From a virus: a stretch of DNA of 64,000 nucleotides. The DNA is taken from IMG/VR virus record IMGVR_UViG_3300025736_000018, positions 652 through 64,651 of that record; one strand, given 5' to 3'. Below, in pieces: positions 19,287 to 64,000 of the stretch. Below the pieces are notes generated by a model that saw nothing but the letters and a program-made list of their open reading frames with translations, ran no database searches and was not told where the DNA came from. Made by a program: the position numbers and the translations under genes. Each line of letters opens with the position of its first letter. Positions within the stretch are counted from its first letter, which is position 1.

Positions 19287-19630
19287 TATTACTATTAGAC
19301 AAGGCTACGGAGGTGATAGAATTATACTTTTTAATCATAGTTTATTTAAGTATAATTGTATTATGCATATCAATTCAGAGCTCAAAGCTGTTGTATGTGA
19401 AAAAGGAACCTTAAGAGCTATCGCATATAGGAATAAATAATATTTTAACACCACCCAGTACAGTAATAGTTGATGTGGTTTTTAAGTTTGAAAAGCTTCC
19501 TGAAACTCTATTTTCTGTATCTTTTTCTGGTACAAAAATAGATGTATGGAGAATAGATGACTCTCCAACACCACATTATGTTAAAAGTTATGACATAACT
19601 TAAAAATTAAAGAAAACGAGGAGTATATAG

Positions 19631-24235: not shown

Positions 24236-24496
24236 ATGACAAACCAAGAAATAGCGGTTGAAATTGCTCAATGGGCAAATAATGGTGACGCCAAGAACTT
24301 AGAGGATATCGAATACAGGAAAATAGGGGATTTTATTTCAGTGAGCTATACCAGTATTTCCACAAGGGTAACTATTGAGTATAATTTTTTATCTGATTAT
24401 ATGCTTGTATACTATTCTCTAAATTTAATTGAAACACCTCGTTACGGAATATTTAACGTAAGGAGAGTAGTAGAACTATTTAGGAGTATGAAATGA
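24236..24496 (+). CDS. hypothetical protein
   Basis: 86-aa ORF. Confidence 0.45.
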   Translation: MTNQEIAVEIAQWANNGDAKNLEDIEYRKIGDFISVSYTSISTRVTIEYNFLSDYMLVYYSLNLIETPRYGIFNVRRVVELFRSMK

Positions 24497-25695
24497 ACGG
24501 AGTAATATTTGAAAAAGATAGTGGAGTAAAACCAATCAAGCATTGGCTACCATTTAATGAAATAGAAGAAGGAGCATTACAACAGGCACGAAACTTAGCA
24601 TCTCTACCATTCATATTTAAACACGTAGCATTAATGCCGGACTGTCACCAAGGATATGGAATGCCGATCGGCGGAGTTATAGCGACTAGAAATGTGGTAA
24701 TTCCAAATGCAGTCGGTGTTGATATTGGTTGTGGAATGTGTGCTGTGAAAACACCATGGAAAACACATGAGATACCACGTAATGAAATATTACGTATTAT
24801 GGCTGAGATTCGTAAAAGAATACCACTTGGAAAAAATAGTCATAATAGTCCTCAGATAGATGCAATGGTAAAATTAATGAATGGTCGTACTGGATACGAT
24901 CTCGGGGAAATTAGCTTTCGTCGCTATGAAGCATCTATGACACAATTAGGAACAATGGGTGGTGGAAATCACTTCATTGAAATTCAGAAAGATAAAGAAG
25001 AGAATATTTGGGTAATGGTTCATTCTGGTTCACGTAACTTAGGTAAAAGAATCGCTGATTATTACAATAATATTGCTATTAAGAATAACAAAATCTGGCA
25101 TACGCAAATTCCTACAGAATATCAATTAGCATTCTTACCGTTTGGTACTGAATATGCTCAAAATTATCTTCGTGAAATGAACTTTGCAGTTGAGTATGCT
25201 TTTGCAAATAGAGCATTAATGATGGAAAGAATTAAAGAATCGTTTGATATTATTATGAGTTGGAAAACTATTGATTTATCTAGCATGATTAATATAGCTC
25301 ATAACTATGCTCAAATGGAGAATCACTTTGGCGAAAATGTTTTAGTTCATAGAAAGGGAGCCACTCTTGCGAGAACAGGAACTATAGGAATTATACCAGG
25401 CTCTCCAGGTACTCCATCGTATATAGTTAATGGACTCGGAAATCCAGATAGCTTTATGTCTTGCTCTCATGGAGCCGGCAGATTGATGTCAAGAACCAAA
25501 GCTCAAAATGAATTGAGCCTTAATGAGCAAATTAAAATATTAGATGATCAAGAAATCATTCATGGAATCAGACATGAAAGAGATTTAGATGAAGCACCTG
25601 GTGCTTATAAAGATATTAATAGTGTTATGTATAATCAGGAAGATCTTGTCAAGGTAGTTACTAAGTTGATGCCGCTAGCAGTAATAAAGGGGTAA
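24493..25695 (+). CDS. rtcB: RtcB RNA 3'-phosphate/5'-OH ligase
   Basis: MPDCHQGYG, VGVDIGCGM, GGGNHFIEIQ, HSGSRNLG, HRKGAT, CSHGAGR. Confidence 0.9.
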   Translation: MNGVIFEKDSGVKPIKHWLPFNEIEEGALQQARNLASLPFIFKHVALMPDCHQGYGMPIGGVIATRNVVIPNAVGVDIGCGMCAVKTPWKTHEIPRNEILRIMAEIRKRIPLGKNSHNSPQIDAMVKLMNGRTGYDLGEISFRRYEASMTQLGTMGGGNHFIEIQKDKEENIWVMVHSGSRNLGKRIADYYNNIAIKNNKIWHTQIPTEYQLAFLPFGTEYAQNYLREMNFAVEYAFANRALMMERIKESFDIIMSWKTIDLSSMINIAHNYAQMENHFGENVLVHRKGATLARTGTIGIIPGSPGTPSYIVNGLGNPDSFMSCSHGAGRLMSRTKAQNELSLNEQIKILDDQEIIHGIRHERDLDEAPGAYKDINSVMYNQEDLVKVVTKLMPLAVIKG

Positions 25696-25702
25696 AAATA
25701 AA

Positions 25703-25784
25703 GTTACTATTTCTTAATTTCTAATTATATTATATTTAGATCTTTTATATTTTAAGGAACTAAAATAACTTGGAGGTTATTAAG
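25703..25784 (+). promoter_or_regulatory. reiterated promoter/leader cassette (copy)
   Basis: GTTACTATTTCTTAATTTCTAATTATATTATAT then AACTTGGAGGTTATTAAG-ATG. Confidence 0.5.
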
Positions 25785-26066
25785 ATGAAAAAAATTTATA
25801 GAGTATGTGCAATGGAAGTACTTAGTATGGACATATATTACAGATATGAATCTTATGATAAACCAGCAGCACATGAATATGTATTGAGATGTTATAGAAG
25901 ATGTAAGAATATGAATCGTGATGAGAACGTAATGAATGATAATCTTACTCTAAAAGAAGCAATCAAATGGTTTAACTTTTATAACACTGAGCGCGAATTT
26001 GGTGGAGCAATTATTCAGGTTTATAATGAAGATACTAAAATCTGGGAGGACGAAAATGGGAAGTAA
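25785..26066 (+). CDS. hypothetical protein
   Basis: ATG after the leader. Confidence 0.5.
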   Translation: MKKIYRVCAMEVLSMDIYYRYESYDKPAAHEYVLRCYRRCKNMNRDENVMNDNLTLKEAIKWFNFYNTEREFGGAIIQVYNEDTKIWEDENGK

Positions 26067-26463
26067 AATTTATAAAGAGCCGTTTAGGGAATTGATTAAG
26101 AAATATCGAAGTATTACTTTGAAGCAGATTGAAGATGATATTGACTCTAATCCTATTGATTCCGCTCTTAGTGAAGCTCGTGTATTGTCGTCTATAATGT
26201 TTACTCCGTATAGGCTTACTGGCTTTGGTGGAAGTGGTTGTATATTATGTAGAGCGTTTAATGGCAATTGCATGTTCTGCTATGGAGCGTATCATGAAGG
26301 TTTTGGAGATTATAATGGCTTAGGATGTCTACATTATGGACATGAAGAGACATATTATAAAATATCTCATGCTCGTGATGCTGAAGACTTACTCAACGCT
26401 TTCAATGAAAGAGCTAACCATATAGAAAAGTGGTTAAAAGGATTCAAAGATGGAAGAGATTAA
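26056..26463 (+). CDS. Cys-rich protein, KEPF...ELIKKYRSIT family (paralog 1)
   Basis: conserved N-terminus KEPFRELIKKYRSIT and C-terminus LNAFNERANHIEKWL. Confidence 0.5.
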   Translation: MGSKIYKEPFRELIKKYRSITLKQIEDDIDSNPIDSALSEARVLSSIMFTPYRLTGFGGSGCILCRAFNGNCMFCYGAYHEGFGDYNGLGCLHYGHEETYYKISHARDAEDLLNAFNERANHIEKWLKGFKDGRD

Positions 26464-26833
26464 TAAAGAACCATTTAAAGAATTGATTAAGAAATATCGA
26501 AGTATTACTTCGGAGCAAATTGAAAAAATTAGTAAATGTGAATTTTGCATGGGAGATGTTGCAGCTGAACTAACTGGATGGGGCTGTACGCTAACTTGTA
26601 TTTTATGTTTAACCTTTAAAGAAGAATGTTCAAAATGTTATGGTATTGAATGTGGAGTAAATCGCAAGAAATATGCCTGTGTGGGAGGGGTGCATGAAAA
26701 AACATATGCTAATATTGGAGAAGCTCAGACATTTAACGAACTTTTCAATGCTTTTAATGAAAGAGCTAATCATATAGAAGAATGGTTAGAGGGATTTGAC
26801 GATGAGTTTGAAGATGAGAAAACTAAGGAGTAG
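26450..26833 (+). CDS. Cys-rich protein, same family (paralog 2)
   Basis: KEPFKELIKKYRSIT ... FNAFNERANHIEEWL. Confidence 0.5.
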   Translation: MEEINKEPFKELIKKYRSITSEQIEKISKCEFCMGDVAAELTGWGCTLTCILCLTFKEECSKCYGIECGVNRKKYACVGGVHEKTYANIGEAQTFNELFNAFNERANHIEEWLEGFDDEFEDEKTKE

Positions 26834-26835
26834 AA

Positions 26836-27276
26836 ATGCACAAAAAAATAAAAGAGGCTTTTCAAAGTCTATTATCTAGTTATGAAAATATTTCTATAGA
26901 AGACATCAAAGTATATGAAGATGAATTTAAGCGATATCGCGATTCAGATATAACAAAAAGATCACCTTATTTACCAGATAAATTCGGCAGATATGTAATG
27001 AAAAAAAAATTTGGATTAGGAACTGATGATTTTATATTGTGCTGGACCGCTTGGGAAGTCGCTAGAAATTGCTTTAATACAATTCATTTTGATAAAAGAC
27101 ATGTATGTAAATTTTGTTTCGGAAATTTAGGAGGATGTGTTGATAAGAGCTTAGACGTAACAGCGCATAACATTCACGTTTCTGAAACTCCGGCAGAGTT
27201 GCTTGGTAATATTAAAGAGAGAGTTATAGTAATTAAAAAATGGCTAAAGGAGCACGGATATGAGTCAGCAGAGTAA
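26836..27276 (+). CDS. Cys-rich protein, divergent member of the same family (paralog 3)
   Basis: shared C-terminal pattern IKERVIVIKKWL and Cys spacing. Confidence 0.4.
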   Translation: MHKKIKEAFQSLLSSYENISIEDIKVYEDEFKRYRDSDITKRSPYLPDKFGRYVMKKKFGLGTDDFILCWTAWEVARNCFNTIHFDKRHVCKFCFGNLGGCVDKSLDVTAHNIHVSETPAELLGNIKERVIVIKKWLKEHGYESAE

Positions 27277-27589
27277 TACCGCACCTTGGATAATAGCTCT
27301 AGTACTTATATTTGGCCTAGGATTTATGACAGCAGCCAGCTATCTTACAGAGAATGAGTCTCATAAACCTTTAGAATATACAGTTACAAATCAATATGGA
27401 TTTTTGATTGATGTTAATAATGACATCATGCAGAGAGCATGTGTATTCCATAATATTGGTCCTGATGATATTCGATGGGATATTGAAAACAAAACTTTTT
27501 CATTTTATAGAAAAAATGGCGAACACTGTAAAGTATTTACTAATGCCTTTATGAAAGAATTAAGTAAGGAGAATTATGTTTTGGGATAA
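27260..27589 (+). CDS. hypothetical secreted/membrane-anchored protein
   Basis: hydrophobic N-terminus PWIIALVLIFGLGFMTAASY. Confidence 0.45.
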   Translation: MSQQSNTAPWIIALVLIFGLGFMTAASYLTENESHKPLEYTVTNQYGFLIDVNNDIMQRACVFHNIGPDDIRWDIENKTFSFYRKNGEHCKVFTNAFMKELSKENYVLG

Positions 27590-27956
27590 AAAATTTGATA
27601 GAAAAGAAATTAAGAAAGCTAAAACATTTATTCGTCCAGAAGAAAAACCTAGAAATGTAAAGGCTGGAAATAAGAAAAAAAACTTTAGAGTATATGGTAA
27701 GAATTGGCCATGGCAACATCTCTATGATATGTACATTAATCTAGGTGATTTTGTAACTGCAAGAAAAATGTGTGAACAAAAAGAAAGAATATCTTTTCTA
27801 GATCATGAGTTAGATTATATAAATTCATACAAAACTCTTAAACAAGCTCAAAATGCAATGAGTTCATATAATAAAAAAAGCTATTATAAACTTGAAATTA
27901 GAGAGTTAAATGAAAATATAAAGGAGTGGGTGACAATTGAAAAGTTTAATGACTAA
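27576..27956 (+). CDS. hypothetical protein
   Basis: 126-aa ORF. Confidence 0.45.
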   Translation: MFWDKKFDRKEIKKAKTFIRPEEKPRNVKAGNKKKNFRVYGKNWPWQHLYDMYINLGDFVTARKMCEQKERISFLDHELDYINSYKTLKQAQNAMSSYNKKSYYKLEIRELNENIKEWVTIEKFND

Positions 27957-28206
27957 GATAGTAACTCAACAACAAGAAGTCTTATACTTCTTGCAAAGTA
28001 CACAAACATATAATATTTGTAATATGATTAAAGACTTAGGAAATAATGAGTTTTCAAAAAGACTAAAAGAATTAGATAAAACTAAAATTGGAAAAATTAA
28101 TCATAAAGACGGCACTATAGATTCATATGATATACTCAGAAATGATGTGATTGGGTATGTAATAATCAATAAACTAAGAGTTAGGGTAGAGTGGAAATTA
28201 ATTTAA
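27937..28206 (+). CDS. hypothetical protein
   Basis: 89-aa ORF. Confidence 0.45.
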   Translation: MKSLMTKIVTQQQEVLYFLQSTQTYNICNMIKDLGNNEFSKRLKELDKTKIGKINHKDGTIDSYDILRNDVIGYVIINKLRVRVEWKLI

Positions 28207-28210
28207 AAAA

Positions 28211-28272
28211 GTTACTATTTTTTATAATTTGATTATATTATTAATGAAATTAGTAAACGGAGGTTAATTAGA
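28211..28272 (+). promoter_or_regulatory. reiterated promoter cassette (copy)
   Basis: GTTACTATTTTTTATAATTTGATTATATTATT then ACGGAGGTTAATTAGA-ATG. Confidence 0.55.
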
Positions 28273-28656
28273 ATGGAAATTAATAAAAAGCCTTTTTTAG
28301 AATTGATTAAAAAGTATCGAAGTATTACTATAGCTGAAATTCAAGCTATTAAAGATTCTGGAGTCAGCGGATTTAATATCATTGCAATGCATTTAACAGG
28401 ATTTGGAGGAAGTACATCTTGTATATTATGTAGAGCATTTGATCACCGCTGTAAATATTGTTACGGAATAGAGACTTATTTTAATGAAGTCATTATGAAA
28501 GAGCACAGAGCACAATTCGGTTGTCTACATAATGATCATGAAAAGACATATTATAGAATTAAAAATGCGGGAACTGTAGACGACTTACTCAATGCTTTTC
28601 AAGCACGAGTAGATCACATTGAAAGGTGGTTGGAAAAATTTGAAGAAGAAAAATAA
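28273..28656 (+). CDS. Cys-rich protein, same family (paralog 4)
   Basis: KKPFLELIKKYRSIT ... LNAFQARVDHIERWL. Confidence 0.5.
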   Translation: MEINKKPFLELIKKYRSITIAEIQAIKDSGVSGFNIIAMHLTGFGGSTSCILCRAFDHRCKYCYGIETYFNEVIMKEHRAQFGCLHNDHEKTYYRIKNAGTVDDLLNAFQARVDHIERWLEKFEEEK

Positions 28657-39040: not shown

Positions 39041-39117
39041 ATTAAAGCTGTAACTTATTATGAGAGTTTGTATGAGTGATTGGTTGACTAAATAGCTAAA
39101 TTTTTATAATAAATAAC

Positions 39118-39209: not shown

Positions 39210-40010
39210 ATGCAAATATCACACGAATCACCGTTATGCTTATTAGAAGAGAGTAGAAAATATAATGATTATGATTATGCTCTAGTTCATCTATTTGATA
39301 GTAATGGCAAATATTATAATTTTTTTGAAGAGTCATTGAAATTAGGAAGACGCGTTATTTTAGATAATAGTATATTTGAACTTGGTACCGCTTTTGATGC
39401 AGAAGAGTTTTCACAATGGATTCACACATTAAATCCGACTGATTATATAGTTCCAGACGTTTTAGAGGATTGTGATGGAACTATTGCACAGTTTGAGAGT
39501 TGGATAGAGAATCATGGAGATCTACCAGGAAATAAAATAGGAGTAGTCCATGGAAAGACATATGAAGAAATGGTTAAGTGTTATCAATATATGGAACGAA
39601 ATGCTGATAAAATAGCTTTTAATTTTGTTGATAAAGTGTATGATGATTTTTGCATGCAAGGAGATATTGGACTTGATTTTGGTAGAATGACTGGTAGAAT
39701 GGATTTGATCCAAAAAATGGTTGAAGATGGTATCATTAATACAAATATAAAGCATCACATATTAGGTTGTGTATTACCTCAAGCAGGTAAGTTTTACAAA
39801 CAATTTGATTGGATAGAATCCGTTGATACATCAAACCCTATCATTCACGGTATACTAAATATTAAATATCAAGAACAAAAAGGCTTATTTACAAAGAATA
39901 AAATAAAAATGGTTGATATCTTTGATAAAAAAGTTGATAGAGAACAATGGAATGACATACAATATAACATTGAACAATTCAGAAAGATTTGGAGTATAAA
40001 TGAACATTAA
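39210..40010 (+). CDS. hypothetical protein; candidate TGT/DpdA-like 7-deazaguanine transglycosylase
   Basis: sits between QueC and FolE2; ILDNSIFELG loosely resembles the TGT-family LDSGGFQ motif. Confidence 0.3.
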   Translation: MQISHESPLCLLEESRKYNDYDYALVHLFDSNGKYYNFFEESLKLGRRVILDNSIFELGTAFDAEEFSQWIHTLNPTDYIVPDVLEDCDGTIAQFESWIENHGDLPGNKIGVVHGKTYEEMVKCYQYMERNADKIAFNFVDKVYDDFCMQGDIGLDFGRMTGRMDLIQKMVEDGIINTNIKHHILGCVLPQAGKFYKQFDWIESVDTSNPIIHGILNIKYQEQKGLFTKNKIKMVDIFDKKVDREQWNDIQYNIEQFRKIWSINEH

Positions 40011-41367: not shown

Positions 41368-42318
41368 ATGAGTTTACCCGACGTACAACAAAACACAACT
41401 GGATTTAAAAAGCTTCCAATAGAGAAAGTTGGAGTGAGAGGAATCAAAGTTCCCTTTCATATATTCCAGAAAGGTAATTCAAAAAGCTTCAGTACAATAG
41501 CAACAATTTCAAGCTACTGTAATCTTGTAGAAGATGTTAAAGGGATAAATATGTCTCGCATTAGCAGAGCAATTAATGAAGTGTTGCAGAGAAATAAAGA
41601 TGGATTTACAAATTTAAATGATTTTGTATATGCGCTTCAAGAGGCTCATGGAGCAACTGATATTTATATTAAGGCAAATTTTGAATATTTATATGATACA
41701 TTATCTCCAATTGAAAAGGTATCGTCAATAGAGCCGGTCAATATTACATTTGAGAGTAAACTAAAAGATGATAAATTATTCAACTACATTACAGTTAAAA
41801 CTACTGAGATGTCATTATGTCCTTGTAGCAAAGAAATGTCATTATTAAAAAATAACCTGACAATGACTGAGAGTTTACTTATACAACATGCTCAATTTCC
41901 TCCGGTATTACTTAATAAAATAAACAATGCTGGCTTTGGAGCACATAATCAAAAATCTACAATTGAGGTTACATTTGAATTTATAGAAGGAAGAACAATG
42001 TGAATCGAAGATATAATGGAAATTATTAGAGAAAATGTATCATCTCCTACATGATCAACTCTTAAAAGAGGAGACGAGAAATATGTAACTGAAAGGTCTT
42101 ATATGGGTGGGTATTATGATGAGAATAAGAAATTTGTAGATACTGGCGGTGGTCCAATGTTTGTAGAAGACATTGTTAGAAATATAGCTTTTGAATTAGA
42201 TAAAGAATTAGATAACAGAATATTAGACTATTCTATTATAGTTAACAATCATGAATCTATTCATTCAGACGATATAATGGCTACTGCAATAATGACAGCA
42301 GGGCGAGAATTAAAATAA
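41368..42318 (+). CDS. folE2: GTP cyclohydrolase I type 2 (FolE2/MptA-like; two in-frame TGA)
   Basis: LPDVQ...IEKVGVRGIKVP, MSLCPCSKEMS, C-terminal HESIHSDDIMATA; the 41368 and 42103 ORFs share one frame. Confidence 0.6.
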
Positions 42319-42325
42319 AAAAGTA

Positions 42326-42400
42326 GTTACTATTTTTTGTAATTTGCTTATATTATATATATATGTAAGATTAAAAAAATATAACTTGGAGGTTATTAAA
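42326..42400 (+). promoter_or_regulatory. reiterated promoter/leader cassette (copy)
   Basis: GTTACTATTTTTTGTAATTTGCTTATATTATAT then AACTTGGAGGTTATTAAA-ATG. Confidence 0.55.
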
Positions 42401-42679
42401 ATGAGAGAAAGAACACAGGTGCAGGATTTTAAAGCAGAAAGAAAGTTAAAATATGTAAGTTCACATGCAAATAAGATTTCAAAAGATGATATGCAGTTGA
42501 TCTATAATGAACATGATATAGAAAAAAAGCGCACAATGGTTATTAAAATCATAAATGACTTCGCATACAAAGGTAAGCAAGCGCTTTTTTTGAAAAAAGT
42601 TAAAAGTACTAATAGTACTATAGGGCTAGATATAATAGCTTCAAATCTATACTTATTCGCTGAAGGACTTTATGTATAA
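42401..42679 (+). CDS. hypothetical protein
   Basis: ATG after the leader. Confidence 0.5.
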   Translation: MRERTQVQDFKAERKLKYVSSHANKISKDDMQLIYNEHDIEKKRTMVIKIINDFAYKGKQALFLKKVKSTNSTIGLDIIASNLYLFAEGLYV

Positions 42680-49792: not shown

Positions 49793-49861
49793 GTTACTAT
49801 TTTTTGTAATTTTATTATATTATATATAAGTAAATTTAAGAATAACTTGGAGGTTATTAAA
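49793..49861 (+). promoter_or_regulatory. reiterated promoter/leader cassette (copy)
   Basis: GTTACTATTTTTTGTAATTTTATTATATTATAT then AACTTGGAGGTTATTAAA-ATG. Confidence 0.55.
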
Positions 49862-50203
49862 ATGGAAAAGATTAATAAAATTATGGAACTAGTTAGAGAA
49901 TACGGAGAAGCTTGTAGCAAAGTAACTCAAATGGAATCTAAGAGTAGAAGTAATATTAAAGCTAGTGTTTTAGCTCATCAATACCTAAAACCATATTATA
50001 AATTTGATGAAATTCGTCGCAATCTCGAAGCAGAAATTCCATTTGAGATATCACTTGGCGATCATGTTTTAGTTCCAATGGATGAGGTTTCTTTTCCGCT
50101 ATTTGAAGGTGTAGTACGTGAATTCGGAGTAGCTCCTTCTAGCGCCAATGATAACTATTATGGGAATGATGAAGATCAACCTCTTATTAGAGTATTAGGA
50201 TAA
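49862..50203 (+). CDS. hypothetical protein (VREYGEAC family)
   Basis: ATG after the leader. Confidence 0.5.
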   Translation: MEKINKIMELVREYGEACSKVTQMESKSRSNIKASVLAHQYLKPYYKFDEIRRNLEAEIPFEISLGDHVLVPMDEVSFPLFEGVVREFGVAPSSANDNYYGNDEDQPLIRVLG

Positions 50204-51812: not shown

Positions 51813-53321
51813 ATGATTAATGAAGAGGACAAGAACGTAAAGAGTCAAAAAAAATGAGCAATTGGAGATATTAGAAACGGATATCCGGTATTGCCATTAG
51901 AAGAAAGAAAAACAATTCTCTTGCTTAGTGACGATGCTAGAATGCATTCCGGCGTCGGGACTATGTCAAGAGAAATTGTTTTGGGCACCTGTCACTATTT
52001 TAATTGAGTTCAAATAGCTGGAGCAATTAAAAATCCAGATATAGGTAAAATAGTAGAGCTTTCGCAATCAACAGTAGATGCAACTGGCGTACCGGATGCT
52101 CAATTTAAATTATATCCAGTAAACGGATATGGTAATCCAAACGTATTAAGGATGGTATTAGCAAATGAACCTCAAGTTAACGGATTATTACATTTTACAG
52201 ATCCAAGATTCTGAGGTTGGCTATATCAAATGGAAAATGAAATTAGACAATCAATTCCAATAATGTATTGAGCTTTGTGAGACAATCTACCATACCCAAA
52301 ATGAAATAGAGATTTTTATAGAAGTTGTGATTTAATAATGAGTATTTCTAAACAATCAAAAAATATACATGATGTTGTATTAAAAGGTTATGCAAAAAAA
52401 GAAAATATTGAGGTTACATATGTGCCGCATGGCATAAATCCTAATGTTTTCTTTCCTATTGAAAATAAAGAGAATGATGTTGAGTATTCCAATTTTAAAA
52501 ATACAGTTCTAAATAGAGAAGAATATGATTTCATTATTCTTTATAATAATAGAAACCTCGGTAGAAAACGTACAGCTGATATTATGACTGCATTTCAATC
52601 CTTTAGTGAGAAGGTAGGTAATAAGAAAAAGCCTTTGCTACTAATGCGTACAGATATTAGTGATGATGGAGGTACAAATCTTCATGCAGTATATAGAGAC
52701 CTAATGCCCGAGATTAATGTAAAGTTTATACCAAGTAAAATATCACCTAGTCAAATGAACTATTTATATAACATGTCAGATTTAACAATTAATGTCTCTT
52801 CAGCTGAAGGATTTGGATTAGCTTCTGCAGAATCTATAATGGCAGGTACTCCGATATTAGTTAATTGTACCGGTGGGCTTCAAGATCAATTAAGAATGGT
52901 CAATGATGATCATTCACCAGTAGAATTTACAGAAGATTTTCCGAGTAACTCTTGTGGAGTACATAGAATTCATGGTCCATGAGCATTTGTAGTTTGACCT
53001 CAACAAAATCTGATAGGCTCTCCGCCAACTCCATATATCTATGATGATAGAGCAAGCATTAATGATATTACAGAAAAGATGTATGAAGCGTTTAGCTTAT
53101 CTAAAAAGAATATGAATGATAGAGCAGTGAAAGGACGTAAGTGAATATTAAATAATCTATCATCTCCCATTATGTGTGAAAAAATGACGAAAGATATTTC
53201 CAAATGTGTATATAGTTTCAAAGGTAGAAAGCATTTTGATATTTTTAAAATAGAAAGCAATGAGAAAGATGATAATACACTTGCTGGAATATGAGATGAA
53301 ACAATTAAAAAGTGATTATAG
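51813..53321 (+). CDS. glycosyltransferase, GT-B fold (GT4-like), about 11 in-frame TGA
   Basis: 502-aa frame from ATG 51813 to TAG 53319-53321; MNYLYNMSDLTINVSSAEGFGLASAESIMAGTPIL matches the GT4 C-terminal motif. Confidence 0.7.
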
Positions 53322-53331
53322 GTTTTAAAAA

Positions 53332-54981
53332 ATGAACTATAGAAACAATTCAACAAATATAACAAAAGTACTTTATGGGCCTGATTTGACAAAAGAATTA
53401 CAATCAGGAATTGAAAAGCTCGCAACAATAATTGCATCAACACTCGGTCCTAGGGGAAAAAATGTAATTATAAATAATAAGAAGAATAATATCCCTTTCA
53501 TTACAAACGATGGAGCTACCATAGCAAAGAGTATCTGTCTTGATAATGATTATGAAAATGCAGCAGTACAGCTCTTGAAACAAGCAGCATTAAAAACTGA
53601 GTCTGATGCTGGTGATGGAACAAGTACTGCTATTGTTTTGGCTAATGCAATTATAATGAATACAAGAACTGCAATGGAAGAGTATCCAAATCTTAATGTT
53701 AATAAGCTAAAAAGAGATCTTGATTATTGATTAGAAATTGCATTAGGATATATTGACAAGCAATCATTTGAGCTAAAAACAATTGATGAAGTAAGACATA
53801 TAGCTACAATATCAGCAAACAATGATGAGAGTATAGGAAACATTATAGCTGAAGCAATTGAGCTGGTTGGTAATGATGGAATAATTAACGTAGAGGAATC
53901 TCAAACAGGACTTACAGAAGTCATTAAAGTAGTTGGAATGGAAATTAAAAAGCCAATTATATCACCATATTTCATCAACAATCAACAAAAAGGAAATACC
54001 GATTTTAACGAAGAAACATATATATTAATTATAGATGATAAAGTATATCAACTAAGTAAACTATTACCAGCTCTTCAAGCTGCAACTAAAAGTAATAAAC
54101 CTATATTGATTATAGCTGAAAATATTGAAGGCGAAGCTCTTAGTGGACTAGTTGTTAATGCAGTTAAAGGTAACTTAAAAGTTTGTGCAATAGAAGCTCC
54201 TCATTTTGGTGACGAGCGTAGAAAAGCGCTTGAGGATATAGCCAAATTTACAGGTGCAACAATTTTGAGCAGTAAATATGGACCTCACACATTAGATAAT
54301 TTTGAGAATAAATTTCTCGGTGTAGCAAAGAGAGTTACTGCCGGATCGAGCTGTGTTATTCAAGAAGGTAAAGGTACAGGGTTAGAAGCTTATAAAGAAG
54401 GATTAAAACATCAGCTTAAAGATGAAGATAATAAACTTGCACTTAGAGACAAAGAAATATTAAATATTAGATTAGCTAACTTATCAGCAAACGTTGCAGT
54501 ATTAAAAGTTGGAGCTAGTACTGATGCTGAATTAATTGAAAAAAAAATGAGAATTGATGATGCAATTAGAGCTACTAAATGTGCTATAGAAGAGGGAATA
54601 ATTACAGGTGGAGGAATGTCCTTTTATAAAACATCATTAATATTAGGAAGAGAGTGAGATAAAAATTGAAGTGATGAGACAAGTGTCGCTAAAGCAATAT
54701 TGCAGAAATCATTACAAAGTCCACTACAAACAATAATTCAAAATTACGGTGGCGATGAAAATGAAATATTAATTAAGATTTTTAATGAAGATACTCCAAA
54801 CGTAACATTTAATGCTAATGATGGAAAAATAGTCAACGCATTTGAACACGGTATTATTGATCCAGTGAAAGTAGTTAAGAGCGCTTTAACAAATGCAGTA
54901 AGTATTGCAGGAATGATAATTACAACAACTGCAGCAATAATATATGATAAGGAAAAAAATAATGAATACATCAGTTACTAA
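53332..54981 (+). CDS. groL: GroEL-like chaperonin (three in-frame TGA)
   Basis: DAGDGTSTAIVLA, equatorial ATP-site GGG, C-terminus IDPVKVVKSALTNAVSIAGMIITT; the 53332, 53938 and 54700 ORFs share one frame. Confidence 0.8.
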
Positions 54982-56275
54982 GAAAAAAGAAGAAAAAGAG
55001 AAAGACAAAACATTTTGCTTACTTCATGGACCATTTAACACAGTTTCTGGTTACGGAGCACATGCAAGAGATATTGCAAGAGCAATAATTAAAAAATACC
55101 CCGATTGAGATATTAGATTATTTGACTGTCCATGAGGAAACACCCCAAGAAACTATTTAATGAAGTGAAGAGACGATGATTTAATAAATAGATTATTACA
55201 TGACGGGAAATTACCGCGAAAACCAGAAATATATATTCCAGTACTAATACCTCCTGAATTTAATCCAATAGGAAAATTTAATATTGGTATTACAGCCGGG
55301 ATAGAGACGACATTATGTCATCATTCATGATTAGAAGGTATAAATAGAATGAATTTAAATATTGTACCATCTAAGCATGCTAAAGACGTATTTGAAAAGT
55401 CTAATTACAGCAAGAGAAACAAAGGTAATAATGAAGTCATCGGACAATTAAAATCTGAAAAGTCTATTGAAGTTTTATTTGAAGGTGTAGATACGGAAAT
55501 GTTTCATAAAACGGATATGATTTCTAAAGAGGTCGCTGATTGTATGGATCAAGTTGAAGAGTCATTTGCATTCTTATTTGTAGGGCATTGATTAGACGGA
55601 GCATTTACTCATGATAGAAAAGATATTGGTGGATTAATAGAAACGTTTATCAATACATTTAAAAACAAACAAGTAAAGCCAGCATTAGTCCTAAAGACTA
55701 GTGGTGCGACATTTTCAATTATTGATAGAGAAAATATAATGGAAAAGATAAAGCAAATAAGGCATGATGATACTATGCCAAATATATATCTTATTCATGG
55801 TGATATGTCAGACAAGGATATTAATGGACTATACAATCATCCAAAAATTAAAGCTATGATATCATTAACGCACGGAGAGGGATATGGAAGACCATTAGCT
55901 GAATTTGCCGCTTGTGGTAAGCCAATTATTGCAACAAACTGATCTGGACATATAGATTTTCTTCATCCTAATTATTCAGTATTAATAAGTGGTGAATTAA
56001 GAAATGTACATAAGTCTGCAGCTAGAGAAGGTATGATACTTGAAAATAGTCAATGATTTTATGCAAACTATGCGAAAGTAAAAGAAGCATTATTAGATGT
56101 ATATAAGAATTATGGAAAACACAAAAAGAAAGCTGTCAAGCAAGCTGATATAATTAATAAGCATTATACATTGGATGCTATGGCAGATAAGCTATTTGAA
56201 ATATTTGAAAAGTATCTACCTGTATTTCCAAAAGAAATTCAATTAGCATTACCAAAATTAAAGAAGGTCGAGTAA
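54962..56275 (+). CDS. glycosyltransferase, GT-B fold (six in-frame TGA)
   Basis: SLTHGEGYGRPLAEFAACGKPIIATNW(TGA)SGHIDFL matches the GT1/GT4 nucleotide-sugar motif; start overlaps the GroEL end. Confidence 0.65.
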
Positions 56276-56881
56276 ATGAAAAAAGAAGAAGAGAAGACTA
56301 GTAGAAGTCTTAGTGATTTAAATAGTAAAATAATTAAAGTAGTTGAACCAAATGTAATATTTTTTTATGCTGAACGTTTAGACTATGAAAGTTCATTAGA
56401 GCTTAATGCAGCTATATGTGAGGTAACAAATTATGTTGAAAAGACAAACAAAACACAAACAAATCTAGAAAATTATACTGACCACATTGACTTACATATT
56501 TTTTGTCCAGGTGGACTAGTCTCTGCTGCATTTAGTAGCGCAAATATAATTAAAAGTAACTCGATAAATATTCATACATATATTGACGGATATGCAGCAT
56601 CTGGTGGAACAATAATTAGTATGGCTGGACATAAGAGATATATGTATAAAAAATCAGTTGCGCTAATTCATGAACCTTTTGGTGGGTTCATTGGAAAAGC
56701 TTCTGATTTTGCAATTGAAAAAGAAAATGCTGATTTAGAATTTGCTAGAGTATTAAATTATTACTCAGAAATTATGGATATTTCGAAAGATGCCATTTCT
56801 GAATTATTGAAAGAGGAGAGATTATTAAACGCAACACTTTGTCTCAAGTATGGAATTGTTGATAAAGTATTACAAAATTAA
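56276..56881 (+). CDS. ClpP-like serine protease (S14 family), candidate prohead protease
   Basis: FCPGGLVSAA (oxyanion loop), GYAASGG (Ser), ALIHEP (His). Confidence 0.7.
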   Translation: MKKEEEKTSRSLSDLNSKIIKVVEPNVIFFYAERLDYESSLELNAAICEVTNYVEKTNKTQTNLENYTDHIDLHIFCPGGLVSAAFSSANIIKSNSINIHTYIDGYAASGGTIISMAGHKRYMYKKSVALIHEPFGGFIGKASDFAIEKENADLEFARVLNYYSEIMDISKDAISELLKEERLLNATLCLKYGIVDKVLQN

Positions 56882-56903
56882 AAAAAGAGAATTAAAAAAG
56901 AAA

Positions 56904-57617
56904 ATGCAAAAACAACAGACGAAAGAGCAGTTAGAGAAAATATTTAAAGACAGAAAGTTCAACGTAGAAATTAAAGAATTTGAATCATCAGCAGAGGACG
57001 GTCTCAAATTTGTAGAAAAACGAGATGATATTGAGGATAGCTCAAAAGATATCCAGCTCGATGAATTATATGAAAATGAAGATGTGACTCCAGCAAACAT
57101 TCAAGCACAGCTTGATAACTATGAAGAAATGGAAGAGTTTCCTTCAACAGTAAAAAGAATTCAATGTCCGAGATGTAGTTCAATGAACTGTTTCGAAGAA
57201 GAATTCCCAGAATTATCAGATGGAACAAAAATGAATGGATATTTATGTAAGAATTGCGGTTATGTTTCCAATAGTGAATTTAAACACGACAGTATTTATT
57301 ACACAAATGCAATTAATAGACTTCCTACTATGGTAAAGAATCTAGAATTCTATGATGAAAAAAGAGAAATCTATTGGTTTCTTGCAATAGTGCAAACCGA
57401 CAATGGTTATGTATTTCCAGAACCTGATGAAAAAGATTGACATTGAACATATTGACCAACTATATTTATTCCGGAAGAAGAAAAAGAAAACTATCCAATA
57501 AAAGTGGACGGAGAAACTATAGGCTATTACGAACATAGATATGATATCGATAAAGCTCAACAATTTGATAAGACAGACTTCTATAAAGCACTTAGAGCTG
57601 TTGGACTAGAAGAGTAA
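56904..57617 (+). CDS. acidic Zn-ribbon protein, possible scaffold (three in-frame TGA)
   Basis: CPRCSS...CKNCG; sits after the ClpP-like protease. Confidence 0.4.
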
Positions 57618-57626
57618 AATTAAACT

Positions 57627-58133
57627 ATGTCATCAAATTTTGCAAAGAAAAAAAAGAAGAAGAAAACCAGTACTAAAGATTTTTCTAGACAACATGAAAA
57701 AAATATTGAAAAGAAAATAAAAACTACACTTGGTAAGCTAACTCCTGGTATGATTGCAAGATTTAATTATAGGGGTAAGGATGTACATGAGCCTCGCCCC
57801 TTAGTACTTATTTTAAATCCAAGATGAAAGAATCATTGTCATGCGATTGCATTACGTGTGCTAACTGAAGCAGAATTAATGCAATTAGCTAAAATGGTTA
57901 AACTTAGTGTTGGACAAAAAATAGCAAAAAAAGTTAAATTCTTACGATTAGGAACAAAGGCAGATATTGGAAACCCAGAAAGATTTTACAAACAAAAAAT
58001 AAAGCCTTATATGAGAAGAATAGATGAAAACGCATATCGTACATATAATACTCGCGGAATATCTAATGTTAATATTATTGATTATAGGTTTAAAGATATG
58101 GATCTAAGAACTTCAAAAAAGATTAAGAAATAA
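57627..58133 (+). CDS. basic hypothetical protein (one in-frame TGA)
   Basis: the 57627 and 57858 ORFs are in frame across one TGA. Confidence 0.45.
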
Positions 58134-59192: not shown

Positions 59193-59858
59193 ATGATAAG
59201 TATTAGCTACGCGATTACCGTTTGTAACGAAGCTGAACAATTAGCTGAATTACTTGATAAGCTATTAGAAAAAATTGATATAAATGATGAGATAGTTATT
59301 CTTCATGATGAAGAAAATACAACACAAGAAGTTATAGAAGTTTGTAGAAATTATCAATATCAGTTTGGCAAGGGAATGGTACAAGGATTTTCACACAAGT
59401 TAAATAATGATTTTGCAGCACACAAAAATTTTCTAAATCAATGTTGCACGAAAGACTTCATCTTTCAAATAGACGCTGATGAAACTCCTAATTGTGCTTT
59501 ACTTAATAGTATTAAAGGAATAATTAATGAAAACCCCACTGTAGAGTTATATTATATACCTCGCATAAATACTGTTAGTAATATTACAGATGATCATATT
59601 AAGAAGTGGGGATGGAAAGTAAATGAGTACGGGTGGATAAATTTTCCAGATCATCAGAGTAGAATATATAAAAGAGATAATGAAAGAATATTTTGGGTAA
59701 ATCCAGTACATGAACGAATAATAGGTCACGAGCAGTTTGCACTACTTCCAGGACAACCGGAATATTGTCTATATCATAGAAAAGATATAAAGAAGCAAGA
59801 AGATCAAAACAAGTTTTATAATCAAATAATGAAAGGGCGTATAACGTTTACAAGGTAG
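59193..59858 (+). CDS. glycosyltransferase family 2 (GT-A fold)
   Basis: N-terminus ISISYAITVCNEAEQL and the DxD motif FQIDADE. Confidence 0.65.
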   Translation: MISISYAITVCNEAEQLAELLDKLLEKIDINDEIVILHDEENTTQEVIEVCRNYQYQFGKGMVQGFSHKLNNDFAAHKNFLNQCCTKDFIFQIDADETPNCALLNSIKGIINENPTVELYYIPRINTVSNITDDHIKKWGWKVNEYGWINFPDHQSRIYKRDNERIFWVNPVHERIIGHEQFALLPGQPEYCLYHRKDIKKQEDQNKFYNQIMKGRITFTR

Positions 59859-59864
59859 AGATAA

Positions 59865-61163
59865 GTGAAGAGAAAAGAAGCAATAGAACAATTTGTAAGT
59901 AACTTTAAAGAAATATATGGAATTAATAATTTTTGCCATAACGACAAAGACCCAAAGAAGGTATACTACTCAGGCCCTGTATTTGGAGAAGAAGAAACAG
60001 TTGCAATGATTGAAAGTATTCTGACTAGTAAATGACTTTCTGCTGGAGCTGCAGTAAATCAATTTGAGCATATGTTAGCTAAAAAGTATAATCAGAAATA
60101 CTCAATTATGTTAAATTCTGGAAGCTCAGCAAATCTGGTATTAATTAACGCATTAAAAATACTTTTTAAATGAGATAATAATAGCGAAATAATTCTATCA
60201 GTTGTGGGATTTCCAACTACATTAGCTCCAATAATTCAAAATAATCTTAAGCCAGTTTTTATTGATATTGAAATGGACACTCTTAATTTTGACATATCAC
60301 TTATTGAAAAAAAGATAAACAAAAATACAAAAGCAATAGTTATATCACCAGTTCTCGGTAATCCTCCAAACATGGATGAAATAACAAAAATAGCAACAGA
60401 ATATAATCTACATATTATATTAGACAACTGCGATTCGTTAGGTAGTAGATGAGACGATAAATATTTATCAGATTATGCAATTGCTAGTTCATATTCATTT
60501 TATCCAGCTCATCATATTACAACAGGAGAAGGTGGAGCAATAACAACAAACAATCAAGAACTAATTAAAATAGCAAGAAGTCTAATTAATTGAGGTAGAG
60601 CTTGTACATGCATTGGTGAAGAAAATTTAGGTAAAGACGGTTCGTGTGGTAAAAGGTTTTCAAAATGACTAGATGGATACGATAAAATAGTTGACCATCG
60701 TTATGTGTTTTCTAATATTGGATATAATCTTAAGCCGCTCAATTTGCAAGGAGCGATAGGTATTGAGCAACTCAAAAAGGTTGATGATTTTTTTATAAAG
60801 AGAAGAATTGCGAAATTTATAATAGGAAGATTATTTACTGATAATATTTATGGAGTGAGAATACCTGAAGAGAACAGAGAAGCGTACATAAGTTGGTTTG
60901 GTACTCCTGTTATATGTGATAATAATGAAATAAAAACTAAGTTAGTTCAACATTTAGAAAATAATGACATTCAAACGAGAAATTATTTTGCTGGAAACAT
61001 ATTAATACATCCAGGATTTAAACATCTAGGAAATTATAATGATTATCCAATAGCAAATGAAGTGCTAGATAGGGTATTTTTTGTTGGTGCAAGTCCTCAA
61101 TATGACAGCAACACTTTTCAGCATATTAAAAGAGTATTGAAGGCGTTTAAAAATGGTAATTAA
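59865..61163 (+). CDS. DegT/DnrJ/EryC1-family PLP enzyme, ColD/E1-like sugar 3-dehydratase (five in-frame TGA; GTG start)
   Basis: YYSGPVFGEEE...SKW(TGA)LSAG...NSGSSANLVLINAL; PLP-Lys position is His in SFYPAHHITTGEGG, as in ColD (SFYYSHH). Confidence 0.65.
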
Positions 61164-61239
61164 AGCAATATGTCACTACATGCCTTGAGATTTAGATTTA
61201 GCAATACTTAATGTTAATACAATAAAAAAATCAAGCTAT

Positions 61240-62055
61240 ATGCTACAAGATGGTGATAAGCTAATTGTAGCACTTACATTAAATTTATCAAGTTATATAG
61301 TTGATTGGTATAAATCTGAAATTTCTATAGATCTTTTAAAAGACAAGTTTCAAAGATTGTCACATATTATTGGAAATACTTCAAAAATAAGCTATCAGCT
61401 AAAAGTATTTTTAGGAGATGCTCTTTACGGACATCTTGACTCTCAAAGAGAGTCAATAAAAGAAGATAACGTTGATGGTTATATTCAATATTGCCCAGAT
61501 ATATATTTCAGTGAAACACTAATTCCTTTATATTTTCAAGCTGCCAAAATGATTAAAGAAAAATATTTCGTTGTTGCAGCACAGACTCCTAAACTATGAG
61601 ACAACACATGAGACGTACTACTTAATAGTAGATATAAAGATATGAATTTTAAAAATATGCAATATCAAAATATTAATATATATGATATTAATAATGATAT
61701 ATCACAGAATCAAAATTGAGGAAGACTTATACTTTTGCCAACAATTAAGTTTGCTGGATGAATGGATTATTACAGTAAAGGCTTTGCAGAACAATTATTT
61801 CCTGTACCTGATGATTGACACGGATATGGCTCTTGAGACTTATATTGTATAATACTTGGTAATGATCTAATACGTAAAGGATTTCCGCTTAAACAATATG
61901 TTATAGAAAATCAAATAATTTCACAACGATATTTATTTGATGGAGAGAACGTACATAATAATACACTAACAATGCCGTATCGAGAATTAATTTGTAGAAA
62001 GAATATTCCTGATCAAAGAGAAGTATTTGAATCAACATTACAACAAAAACTTAAT
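61240..62055 (+). CDS. hypothetical protein (six in-frame TGA)
   Basis: 271-aa continuous frame checked codon by codon; stop TAA 62053-62055. Confidence 0.45.
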
Positions 62056-62078
62056 GAGTGAAAAGCTTATGCAATAAA

Positions 62079-63074
62079 AGAAGGATTATAAAAAAAATGA
62101 AAGAAAGAAAACGTAAAAGAATATTAATCACTGGTGGATCTGGAATGGTTGGTCAATATATGAAAGATGAAGCAGAGCGTTGAGGTTATGATGTTTTTAA
62201 TAAAGTAAAATACTTATCAAGTGTTGATTGTGATTTACAAAGTACAACACAAACACGAGCTTGCTTCAAAATATTTAAACCTGATATAGTAATACATTTA
62301 GCAGCTAAAGTAGGCGGAATTATTACAAACTCACTAGAACCTGTGGAGTTTTATGAAGAGAACACATGTATTAATATAAACGTTGTTAAGATGTGTCATG
62401 AATATAATGCTAAATTAATAGCAATGGGTAGTACATGCTCATATCCAGATAAAGTTGATAAGTATCCAATGACAGAAGAGGATATATTTAATGGACCTCC
62501 TACTTGAGATCATTTTGCATATGCAATGTCAAAGAGAGGATTAATTACTCATATTGAATCATATAACAAAGAGTATAATAAAAATTGATGTTATATTATA
62601 CCATGTAATATATATGGAAAATATGATAAATATGATCAATATAATGGACACTTTTTATCATCTTTTATAAAAAGAATTACAACATTAGTAGAAACTACAA
62701 CATCAATAGAGTTATTTGGTACTGGAGAACCTTTAAGACAACACATATATGCCGGAGATGTAGCAAAAATATTATGGATTATGATTAATCGTAATATTAC
62801 AGAAAGTTTTAATGTTTGTCCAGATGAAAATTTAAACATTAATCACATTGCTGAAACAACACTGCAAAGTTGTTTAAGAGAAGATTTAAAAATTGTACAT
62901 AACCCTACAAAACTTGACGGTCAGTATAGAAAAGATGTATCAAATACTAAAATGAAGAATATTTTTGAAGATAAATGTATATCATTTGATTTTACTCCAC
63001 TAAGCGCTGGTATACGTCTTGTATATGATTATTTAATAGAGCAGCAAGAGTCTTTAGAATTAGGTAGTTGGTAA
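62079..63074 (+). CDS. GDP-L-fucose synthase-like epimerase/reductase (Fcl/ColC-like; four in-frame TGA); start unresolved
   Basis: ILITGGSGMVGQ, HLAAKVGGI, GSTCSYP, YAMSKR; no in-frame ATG/GTG/TTG between the stop at 62076 and the conserved N-terminus. Confidence 0.6.
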
Positions 63075-63080
63075 AAAATA

Positions 63081-63302
63081 ATGAATAAGGAAATAGCTAT
63101 GAAATACGGAGATTTAATTAGATTAAGAGAAGAGTTTATGGAAGAATCATGTTATGAAAGTTTTAGAGATCACACATTTGTTTTTATGGGTGAAATGAAT
63201 CAAATGCCAGGTCATTGTATTTTAATTCAGATACACACGGGGAAAGTACACGTAGGTTATCATACAGATAGCTTTAGACTATTAACAGATGATGAAGTAT
63301 AA
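63081..63302 (+). CDS. hypothetical protein
   Basis: 73-aa ORF. Confidence 0.4.
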
Positions 63303-63303
63303 A

Positions 63304-64000
63304 ATGGAAAAACACGATAAAATTAGCAAGGTAATGATTACTACAGAAGATGGTTTAAAATTTGACTTGGCTGATGCTGCACGAAGGTTTCCGGAAATTA
63401 TACGTGATGAAATTGATAGAGAAATATTAGAAAAGCTTCGTAAATCAGCACCAAAATTTCCAAAAGAGATGAAAGTAGCACTAATCACAGGTATATCAGG
63501 TCAGGATGGAAGCTATTTAGCAGAGCTATTACTTGAAAAAGATTACGAAGTGTGAGGTACTCTTAAAAGAAATTCAGTAGCTGAAAACCAATCTAGTAGA
63601 ATTAATCATATTAGATCACAACTACATTTAGAGTATGCTGATATGACAGATATGGCGTCGCTAATACGAGTTTTATCTATGTGTAAGCCAGATGAGGTAT
63701 ATAACTTAGCAGCTCAATCGCATGTACAGATATCATTTAATCAACCAATATATACAACTAATACTATTGTAATGGGAATAATTAATTTGCTTGAAGCAGT
63801 TAAATTAATATGTCCAGAAGCTAGAATATATCAAGCATCTTCTTCAGAAATGTTTGGCAATAGTATTGATGAAGACGGATATCAAAGAGAAACAACGCCA
63901 ATGCATCCTGTGAGTCCGTATGGTTGTGCTAAACTATTTGCGCATAAATTATGTCAAACATATAGAGCATCATATAATATGTATATCAGTTGTGGAATAT
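63304..64000 (+). CDS. gmd: GDP-mannose 4,6-dehydratase (Gmd), 3'-truncated by the window edge; alternative start ATG 63469
   Basis: [28 protein letters not shown](TGA)-[34 protein letters not shown]. Confidence 0.8.

Follow-up and report, generated by a model that had tools for sequence, protein, structure and literature searches.

Phage-encoded GroELs are an established, little-studied class of chaperonins. The dedicated family PHROG 5725 includes proteins from Flavobacterium phage vB_FspM_immuto, Vibrio phage K469, Bacteroides phage DAC23, and human faecal phage MT835992, all large phages of 157–180 kilobases (kb). In virioplankton, hundreds of viral GroELs have been found, 40% of them with a co-chaperonin gene, and the same study describes a GroEL-only viral clade and viral chaperonins associated with small heat-shock proteins (sHSPs) (Marine et al. 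2017, PMC5649160). In the chaperonin gp146 of Pseudomonas phage EL, indels are numerous, the nucleotide pocket alone is conserved, and the H/I groove is occluded (PMC7185714). It is also already known that large phages recode TGA as tryptophan (Trp) in their late genes; the report describing this recoding in large, low-G+C phages proposes a model of late-gene gating and does not mention chaperonins (Borges et al., 10.1101/2021.08.26.457843). Here, we describe a GroEL/Cpn60 homolog of 549 amino acids (aa) encoded at positions 53,332–54,981 of a 64,000-nucleotide (nt) stretch of the viral record IMGVR_UViG_3300025736_000018 (positions 652–64,651 of that record). We refer to this whole stretch as the window, and coordinates are positions in the window and on the + strand unless stated.

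The protein, hereafter the chaperonin, is a full-length group I chaperonin, and from its sequence and predicted structure we consider it likely that the locus encodes a functional, phage-borne member of this class. An earlier note on this DNA, made from the letters alone, had held that phage chaperonins are known from only a few jumbo phages, a view that is outdated: a tblastn search of a phage collection gave matches in 233 records, among them a few bacterial contigs, and in some the GroEL-like gene lies beside a phage GroES; a dedicated PHROG family and the virioplankton surveys (PMC5649160) cover such proteins as well. The chaperonin is at most 40% identical to any GroEL-like match in that collection. 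It belongs to the same family as the PHROG 5725 GroELs, several of which also lack the C-terminal Gly-Gly-Met (GGM) tail, but it is only 37–40% identical to them and differs in its neighbors, which are glycosyltransferase (GT) genes and a head protease gene, and in its TGA recoding. Immuto, in which the gene is part of a GroES-GroEL operon, and the IMG/VR locus L009 have an adjacent GroES, whereas this phage has none adjacent. With the GroEL-only and sHSP-associated chaperonins of virioplankton it shares a conserved ATP site and the lack of a neighboring co-chaperonin gene, and an HSP20 gene beside the GroEL of one relative echoes the sHSP link; those chaperonins, however, come from marine contigs and are compared here by description only, and neither the GT-GroEL-GT order nor genetic code 4 is among the associations reported in the available part of PMC5649160. 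Like EL gp146 (and also OBP gp246 and AR9), the chaperonin is a phage Cpn60 with no adjacent co-chaperonin, a lost D83–K327 bridge, and a divergent ring–ring interface. Unlike EL gp146, which we compare by its published description, it has the sequence and predicted fold of a conventional GroEL and an intact groove, and no EL structure is among the top 50 structural matches of its model. Phage T4, whose gp31 works with the host GroEL, likewise tailors the chaperonin system, presumably for capsid folding (PMC6318259); T4, however, supplies the lid and borrows the cage, whereas this phage supplies the cage and would probably borrow any lid. The novelty of the locus lies in its lineage, in a chaperonin gene set in a code-4 context, and in the conserved linkage of this gene with a pair of GT4 genes and a gene like those for head proteases.

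A full-length group I chaperonin

The chaperonin gene is a single frame of 549 sense codons followed by a TAA stop, with no frameshifts. Its three internal stops are every one TGA and are found at codon 133 (53,728–53,730), codon 442 (54,655–54,657), and codon 446 (54,667–54,669), each of which we read as Trp. The earlier note had placed all three in variable loops, which holds for codons 442 and 446 (loop 441–447 of the equatorial domain) but not for codon 133, which lies in a predicted equatorial helix (residues 123–143) and whose Trp is conserved in the closest relative. The GroEL motifs that had been quoted are present, with SDAGDGTST at residues 91–99, GGG at 426–428, and GIIDPVKVVKSALTNAVSIAGMIITT at 507–532 (which reads GIIDPVKV...SIAGMIITT). 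At least 22 contigs, which come from several samples, encode the exact protein (P0001); the longest, of 176,279 bp, contains the window as its middle third.

Membership in the GroEL family, which had been proposed along with an alignment to Pfam model PF00118 (Cpn60_TCP1) as a check, extends along the whole protein. PF00118 is matched with 203.7 bits against a cut-off of 34.3 (E = 6e-60), residues 30–534 corresponding to profile positions 1–484 of 490, and PHROG 5725 ("chaperonin groEL") is matched at E = 1.5e-121, residues 11–542 corresponding to profile positions 5–537 of 540. GroELs in the PDB align with residues 13–544 at E = 4e-112 to 1e-98; those of E. coli and Salmonella (1AON/1KP8) and an ancestral FCB-group chaperonin (9RWR) give full-length alignments at E = 1e-101 to 4e-112. 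Three NCBIfam models for GroEL subfamilies are also passed (NF000592, 480.4 vs. a cut-off of 397; NF009487, 475.9 vs. 352; and NF009489, 469.4 vs. 464). An AlphaFold2 model built from 46 homologs is confident over the whole length (mean predicted local distance difference test score 88.9, predicted template modeling score 0.79) and contains the three-domain equatorial/intermediate/apical fold of GroEL. Foldseek aligned this model to open-state chains of GroEL, EcHsp60, and mtHsp60 over ~533 columns with template modeling (TM) scores of 0.84–0.91 and root-mean-square deviations of 2.3–3.8 Å.

Functional residues were compared in an alignment to Salmonella GroEL using E. coli numbering. The ATP site is the same as in bacterial GroEL (T30–P33, D52, D87-G88-T89-(T90S)-T91, I150/S151, D398, G415/G416, N479/A480, I493, and D495), the only changes being the conservative T90S and A481N. 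Seven of the eight residues of the apical groove, which binds both substrate and the GroES mobile loop, are identical (Y203, F204, L234, L237, L259, V263, and V264), and the eighth, Y199, is replaced by Ile; its counterpart in the rest of the phage clade is mostly Ile as well, or else Leu. R197/E386 are retained as K/D. Identity to the enterobacterial protein, 36% overall, is 32% in the equatorial, 44% in the intermediate, and 39% in the apical domain. The apical region, which had been called divergent with insertions, contains 5 extra and 3 missing residues relative to Salmonella GroEL, in runs of no more than 3 (insertions of +1, +1, and +3; deletions of −1 and −2), whereas the equatorial domain diverges most and has 14 extra residues, mostly in an 8-residue N-terminal extension that is the largest addition.

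A co-chaperonin gene was sought in the 84 kb examined of the ~176-kb genome, which comprise the window and 10 kb on each side of it, with ~92 kb lying outside. There is no GroES-like open reading frame (ORF) beside the chaperonin and no Cpn10 Pfam match among the called genes of the 84 kb, phmmer and jackhmmer searches with GroES and gp31 as queries found nothing, and a GroES hidden Markov model (HMM) applied with filters off to the window, its flanks, and the contigs of relatives gave nothing below E = 2.6. The same HMM recovered the GroES beside the GroEL of locus L009, a sequence on which it had not been trained, at E = 2e-22. The lack of an adjacent GroES-like gene reported earlier is borne out by ORF, profile, and HMM searches alike, and the genome-wide cpn10 search suggested with it has covered 84 kb of ~176 kb.

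TGA as a tryptophan codon

TGA encodes Trp in this genome and is favored in the gene block that begins at ~51.8 kb, a conclusion that follows from four independent lines of evidence. At codon 133, an ortholog with 68–69% identity (P0002) has a Trp encoded by TGG (RELDYWLK vs. RDLDYWLE here). In a ColD/E1-like sugar 3-dehydrase gene (59,865–61,163), TGA codons are found opposite the W of "WGRxC" and the W of "G-WLTTG" of PDB entry 3bcx; a third TGA in this gene is opposite Tyr/Phe. ORFs before 51.8 kb contain 36 TGA and 196 TGG codons, whereas those after this point contain 38 and 13 (Fisher p = 5e-16), for a total of 74 in-frame TGA codons over all window ORFs, and the two codons taken together remain steady at 1.50% of codons before 51.8 kb and 1.42% after, whereas counting TGG alone would leave Trp at 0.36% of codons in the late block. 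Finally, reading TGA as sense increases ORF coverage of the + strand from 67% to 78% with ORFs of at least 80 aa (~90% with ORFs of at least 50 aa), and the stops that are then left in 119 ORFs are TAA (96) and TAG (23). Before 51.8 kb, a minority of genes also contain 2–5 TGA codons each, namely those for ThyX, a dUTPase-like protein, QueC, a GTP-cyclohydrolase-like protein, and DnaE.

This distribution resembles that of the recoded Jade, Sapphire, and Agate clades (10.1101/2021.08.26.457843), with which the phage shares low G+C, a genome of more than 100 kb, TAA as the preferred stop, and, apparently, TGA=Trp concentrated in late modules while early and replication genes mostly follow the standard code. 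The likeness to these recoded gut phages is one of general features, and no TGA-suppressor transfer RNA (tRNA) was found in the 84 kb.

At least 19 tRNAs are encoded in the window and the 10 kb upstream, among them Trp(CCA) and a suppressor with a CUA anticodon. The phage carries this amber-suppressor tRNA, yet TAG ends 23 of the 119 ORFs and the recoded codon is TGA (tRNA loci at window 4,378–4,452 and 9,846–9,920, both +, and L013, 1–20,342). The tRNA-Trp(CCA) has a U11:A24 pair, a configuration that is that of the Hirsh UGA suppressor and is also native in tRNA-Trp of B. subtilis. Standard-code gene calls by JGI break TGA-containing genes of this phage and its relatives: ThyX is divided into 64 + 89 aa (L014, 3,888–4,400), the 500-aa GT is split into 344 + 103 + 128 aa, and on L017 (741–749) a conserved penultimate TGA (K-W-I/L-stop) shortens the called GT upstream of GroEL by two codons.

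Relatives, neighboring genes, and genome setting

In a neighbor-joining tree, six phage sequences form one clade, in which P0002 is 69% and P0003–P0006 are 45–49% identical to the chaperonin; the tree is not informative about the cellular sister group of this clade. Cellular GroELs overall are 36–44% identical to the chaperonin. Because the GroELs of sequenced phages in PHROG 5725 (37–40%) are more distant from it than the best bacterial GroELs (43–44%), the chaperonin is, as judged by its sequence, a separate lineage from known phage GroELs. No homolog above 69% identity was found, and the source lists for the exact protein P0001 name neither NCBI nor UniRef. A megablast search of the phage collection with the 20 kb around the chaperonin gave no match, which means that there is no close sequenced relative in it. 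Scans of IMG/VR with an exact 26-mer and with the promoter/leader motif described below gave no matches either, and a protein-pattern scan returned one relative with 38% identity and an adjacent GroES.

The gene upstream of the chaperonin encodes a GT4-type glycosyltransferase of 502 aa (51,813–53,321; Glycos_transf_1, 36.5 bits, and GT4-conflict, 38.8 bits, above the cut-offs; phrog_2170, 1.3e-21) whose best PDB match is the chlorovirus glycosyltransferase B736L (3oy2, 6e-8). It contains 11 in-frame TGA codons and one TGG and ends with K-W(TGA)-L-TAG, and the ATG of GroEL follows 10 nt on. The downstream gene, which overlaps the 3′ end of GroEL by 20 nt, encodes a glycosyltransferase of 437 aa (54,962–56,275; Glycos_transf_1, 28.6 bits, above the cut-off; phrog_2170, 6e-24 over its full length) with seven TGA and no TGG. 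The two are weak paralogs (25% identity over 203 aa, E = 2e-5), and these Pfam and PHROG matches bear out the glycosyltransferases that had been noted on both sides of the chaperonin. We also considered a GtfA/GtfB-like pair, that is, a GT with a chaperone-like partner, and rejected it: the PDB search gave only 3oy2 (6e-8) and weak generic GT4 matches. With a 0-nt gap after the GT stop codon follows the gene for a ClpP-fold protease of 201 aa (56,276–56,881; Pfam CLP_protease, 2.5e-23), whose best PHROG match is phrog_94, "head maturation protease" (3e-31), and whose best NCBIfam match is "head maturation protease, ClpP-related" with 89.6 bits, under the 120-bit cut-off. This protein is most likely a prohead (head maturation) protease by these matches. 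A true ATP-dependent ClpP that would form a proteostasis module with GroEL is only a minor possibility: head-maturation-protease profiles outscore ClpP in both PHROGs and NCBIfam.

The string of GT4, GroEL, GT, and ClpP-like protease genes is thus co-oriented and packed, and the tight spacing suggests co-transcription. A scan for consensus promoters and terminators between 49.5 and 60 kb gave counts no higher than in shuffled sequence and so does not inform the limits of an operon. The next two ORFs (255 aa and 168 aa, tightly packed at 56,850–58,133) contain three in-frame TGAs and one, respectively, and match neither Pfam nor PHROG families. They are followed by a nucleotide-sugar/glycosylation cluster that spans 59,193–64,000 of the window and 6,095–16,007 of contig L011. 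Its genes encode a GT2, the ColD/E1-like 3-dehydrase (3bcx, 8e-69), two or three epimerases/reductases, a GDP-mannose-dehydratase-like protein, a GT10 (fucosyltransferase family), a thiamine pyrophosphate-dependent enzyme, and another GT-like ORF; this content suggests synthesis of a deoxy- or dideoxy-hexose glycan that may be destined for the virion, for the surface of the host, or for DNA.

The same arrangement is found on the contigs of P0003 and P0006, which encode a PD-(D/E)XK protein, KTSC, GT4, and GroEL followed by an ORF of ~420–450 aa. The GT4 has ~500 aa on one of them (L015) and is called as 311 aa on the other (L016), and further sugar genes and a ClpP-like gene after GroEL are seen only on the P0003 contig. 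The GroELs of P0003 and P0006 contain no Trp codons; their neighboring genes have in-frame TGA, for example the ORF after GroEL on L016 (nine TGA, no TGG). The P0002 contig is short, and its gene upstream of GroEL terminates with K-W(TGA)-I-TAA, in parallel to the window. The GT/GroEL/GT/protease neighborhood is therefore a conserved feature of a small, TGA-recoding phage lineage. On L016, whose GroEL is 45% identical to the chaperonin, an HSP20 small heat-shock protein gene (5,263–5,661) lies directly upstream of GroEL.

The called genes of the window are all on the + strand, and its G+C content is ~30%. The phage-like surroundings described before are recognizable in families matched only by phage PHROGs, a T4_Y16D domain, RNA ligase and RtcB, the head-protease match, and a tRNA array, to which a CCA-adding enzyme and NUMOD3-type (homing-endonuclease-like) genes can be added. 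Other genes encode ThyX, QueD/QueE/QueC, NAD salvage enzymes, a DnaE-type polymerase, and a PD-(D/E)XK exonuclease, and dozens of small ORFs have no Pfam match or only phage PHROG matches. No ribosomal protein, ribosomal RNA (rRNA), or central-metabolism gene is present in the 84 kb. The assignment to a phage is strong and rests on gene content, with the hallmark structural genes missing from the 84 kb. DnaE is at most 27% identical to that of its nearest phages (26–27%), which are mostly Firmicutes phages and human-faecal contigs; this relationship and a GGAGG leader, which suggests a host that uses Shine-Dalgarno sequences, are weak hints of the host.

Several further features of the window were observed. 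The first ThyX gene lies at 22,624–23,277, and a second lies ~9 kb beyond the downstream end of the window on contig L011 (16,004–16,702, −); no other gene seen in the 84 kb is on the minus strand. A transfer-messenger RNA is encoded within the tRNA array (9,083–9,456, +; Rfam RF00023, 121 bits, full length; ARAGORN tag ANNLQLAA). Six exact copies of ATAACTTGGAGGTTATTAA(G/A)ATG, with none expected, occur on the + strand at 8,094–8,116, 14,535–14,557, 25,765–25,787, 32,777–32,799, 42,381–42,403, and 49,842–49,864, each with a −10-like box, TTATATTAT(A), ~20–35 nt upstream. The repeat looks like a promoter and leader/Shine-Dalgarno cassette at the head of six transcription units. All six copies are in the TGG-using part and none is in the TGA-rich block after 51.8 kb, and a search of metagenome contigs with the leader motif returned only a 3.7-kb piece of this window. 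QueD (PTPS), QueE (radical SAM), QueC, and a GTP-cyclohydrolase-like protein, encoded at 36,683–39,091 and 41,368–42,318, make up a preQ0/7-deazaguanine pathway, which some phages use for DNA modification; a 266-aa ORF (39,210–40,010) matches the phage-only phrog_19058 (5e-60). RNA ligase, RtcB, a CCA-adding enzyme, and the NAPRTase and NAD synthase genes are found at 6,086–7,252, 24,493–25,695, 32,764–34,251, and 18,102–20,479, and this RNA-repair/tRNA-maintenance set and NAD salvage pair fit a large translation-manipulating phage. Four consecutive paralogous ORFs with the motif EPFKELIKKYRSIT form a small tandem gene family (25,999–28,656).

Alternative readings and proposed role

Several observations weigh against the main reading of the locus, a functional phage-borne chaperonin. 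The score for the NCBIfam equivalog model TIGR02348 is 478.7, below its cut-off of 582.1, so that a function equal to that of cellular GroEL is not guaranteed. None of the seven inter-ring contact residues is identical to bacterial GroEL (K105T, A109E, E434D, R452Q, E461D, S463N, and V464E), D83/K327 are lost and are S/G here, R13 is not conserved, and G375 is Asn. The (GGM)n tail, which is typical of GroEL and not needed for family membership, is absent: the C-terminus is ...AAIIYDKEKNNEYISY, written as ...YDKEKNNEYISY where it replaces the tail, and those of relatives are ...ISLYGE or ...DVYSF. Judged from the alignment, these changes in the inter-ring contacts, D83/K327, G375, and the tail could alter or weaken the canonical cycle. 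All eight contigs recovered carry the gene with 100% identical DNA and so offer no population-level evidence of purifying selection. Among the tRNAs found in the 84 kb, none has a UCA anticodon; such a suppressor was detected in only 35% of code-4 genomes (Borges et al., 10.1101/2021.08.26.457843). Finally, terminase, portal, capsid, and lysis genes were not identified in the 84 kb, and our description of the surroundings as a putative late morphogenesis block is therefore based on the enrichment in TGA and on the match of the ClpP-like protease.

The first group of alternatives concerns the genetic code. Translated with table 11, the chaperonin frame yields three ORFs of 132, 239, and 93 aa, which could be the fragments of a decaying pseudogene with TGAs as true stops, and similar genes of this phage are split by the standard-code calls of JGI. 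We regard this reading as effectively refuted and as scarcely credible: TGA is the only stop found and there is no frame break beyond it, as the earlier note had held in taking the three codons as sense; the ortholog has TGG at codon 133, TGA stands at a conserved Trp in another enzyme, the 74 in-frame TGAs of the window come with a steady Trp-equivalent frequency, the catalytic residues are intact, and the structural model is confident throughout. The orthologous TGG and the W found in PDB homologs at TGA positions likewise make it extremely improbable that TGA is read as Gly (code 25), as selenocysteine, or by low-level stochastic read-through, even though phages with code 25 exist (10.1101/2021.08.26.457843) and the alignment gives no clue to the residue at two of the three TGAs, which fall in an unconserved loop. 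Without TGA, Trp in the late block would fall to 0.36% of codons as opposed to 1.5% elsewhere, and 11 TGAs in one 502-aa protein are incompatible with selenocysteine or leaky read-through. Because the four lines of evidence given above establish TGA as Trp, we reject the pseudogene, code-25, and selenocysteine readings. Code 4 itself, ~30% G+C, a contig of ~176 kb, DnaE, tRNAs, and a transfer-messenger RNA would also be expected if the gene were the cellular groEL of a bacterium with this code, such as a mollicute or one of the tiny endosymbionts of insects, whose genomes measure ~150–200 kb. This is very improbable as well, given that the 84 kb lack ribosomal protein, rRNA, and central-metabolism genes and contain instead phage-only PHROGs, the head-protease match, T4_Y16D, NUMOD3-like genes, and the RNA ligase/RtcB/CCA enzyme set. 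Moreover, there is no groES upstream, the GroEL score is under the equivalog cut-off, and TGA, largely avoided over ~80% of the window, is gathered in a single block, which is the published pattern of phages (10.1101/2021.08.26.457843) and not that of a code-4 cell.

A different question is whether the chaperonin is autonomous, cycling as a single ring with no GroES-like lid in the manner of EL gp146, OBP gp246, and AR9. That cpn10 was not found in the window, in the 10 kb on either side, or on the contigs of relatives speaks for this possibility, as do the unconserved inter-ring residues, the lost D83–K327 bridge, and the absent GGM tail, which are also reported for EL (PMC7185714), and the existence of a GroEL-only viral clade (PMC5649160). 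EL, however, has numerous indels and conserves only the nucleotide pocket, whereas the chaperonin shares 36–44% identity with cellular GroELs along its entire sequence and has apical indels of at most three residues. It also retains Y203, F204, L234, L237, L259, V263, and V264 of the H/I groove, which an autonomous chaperonin would hardly need to preserve just to dock GroES, although these residues also bind substrate. In addition, canonical GroEL and mtHsp60, two chaperonins that depend on a co-chaperonin, lead the structural matches, and the cpn10 search covers under half of the genome. We therefore consider an autonomous chaperonin unlikely, and action without a co-chaperonin, which the earlier note had implied by reference to jumbo phages, is not indicated by the groove or by the identity to cellular GroELs.

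We return to the reading of the locus as a functional phage-borne GroEL/Cpn60 homolog, which we judge likely. The chaperonin would assemble into heptameric rings and use ATP to drive the folding of phage late proteins, plausible clients being the major capsid protein, by analogy with T4 gp23/GroEL/gp31, or the adjacent large glycosyltransferases. Because full length requires reading through three TGAs, its synthesis would have to await the switch of the infected cell to TGA=Trp decoding and would thus fall late, alongside that of the virion morphogenesis genes. As the GroES-binding groove is conserved and no cpn10 is nearby, the lid would most likely be host GroES, or else a phage cpn10 encoded in the genome outside the 84 kb. 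The loss of the GGM tail and the diverged inter-ring contacts may result in altered ring–ring behavior, possibly in cycling that favors single rings, as mtHsp60 and EL do. A more far-reaching proposal is that the GT4-GroEL-GT-ClpP-like protease string and the large nucleotide-sugar pathway after it constitute a dedicated virion-building unit of a lineage of TGA-recoding phages, in which a tail-less chaperonin with a single-ring bias folds the capsid and/or the decorating glycosyltransferases under the control of the TGA=Trp switch. We regard this proposal as quite doubtful; if true, this would make the protein the first chaperonin with a functional link to both the glycosylation of virions and a switch of the genetic code.

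Standard-code annotation breaks the chaperonin gene into three fragments. The linkage of the gene to the GT4 pair and the head-protease-like gene persists to 45% protein identity and hints at a specific client relationship. Lying in the TGA-rich block of a code-4 phage, the gene provides a clean, testable case in which the expression of an auxiliary gene of host-like type should hinge on the switch of code.

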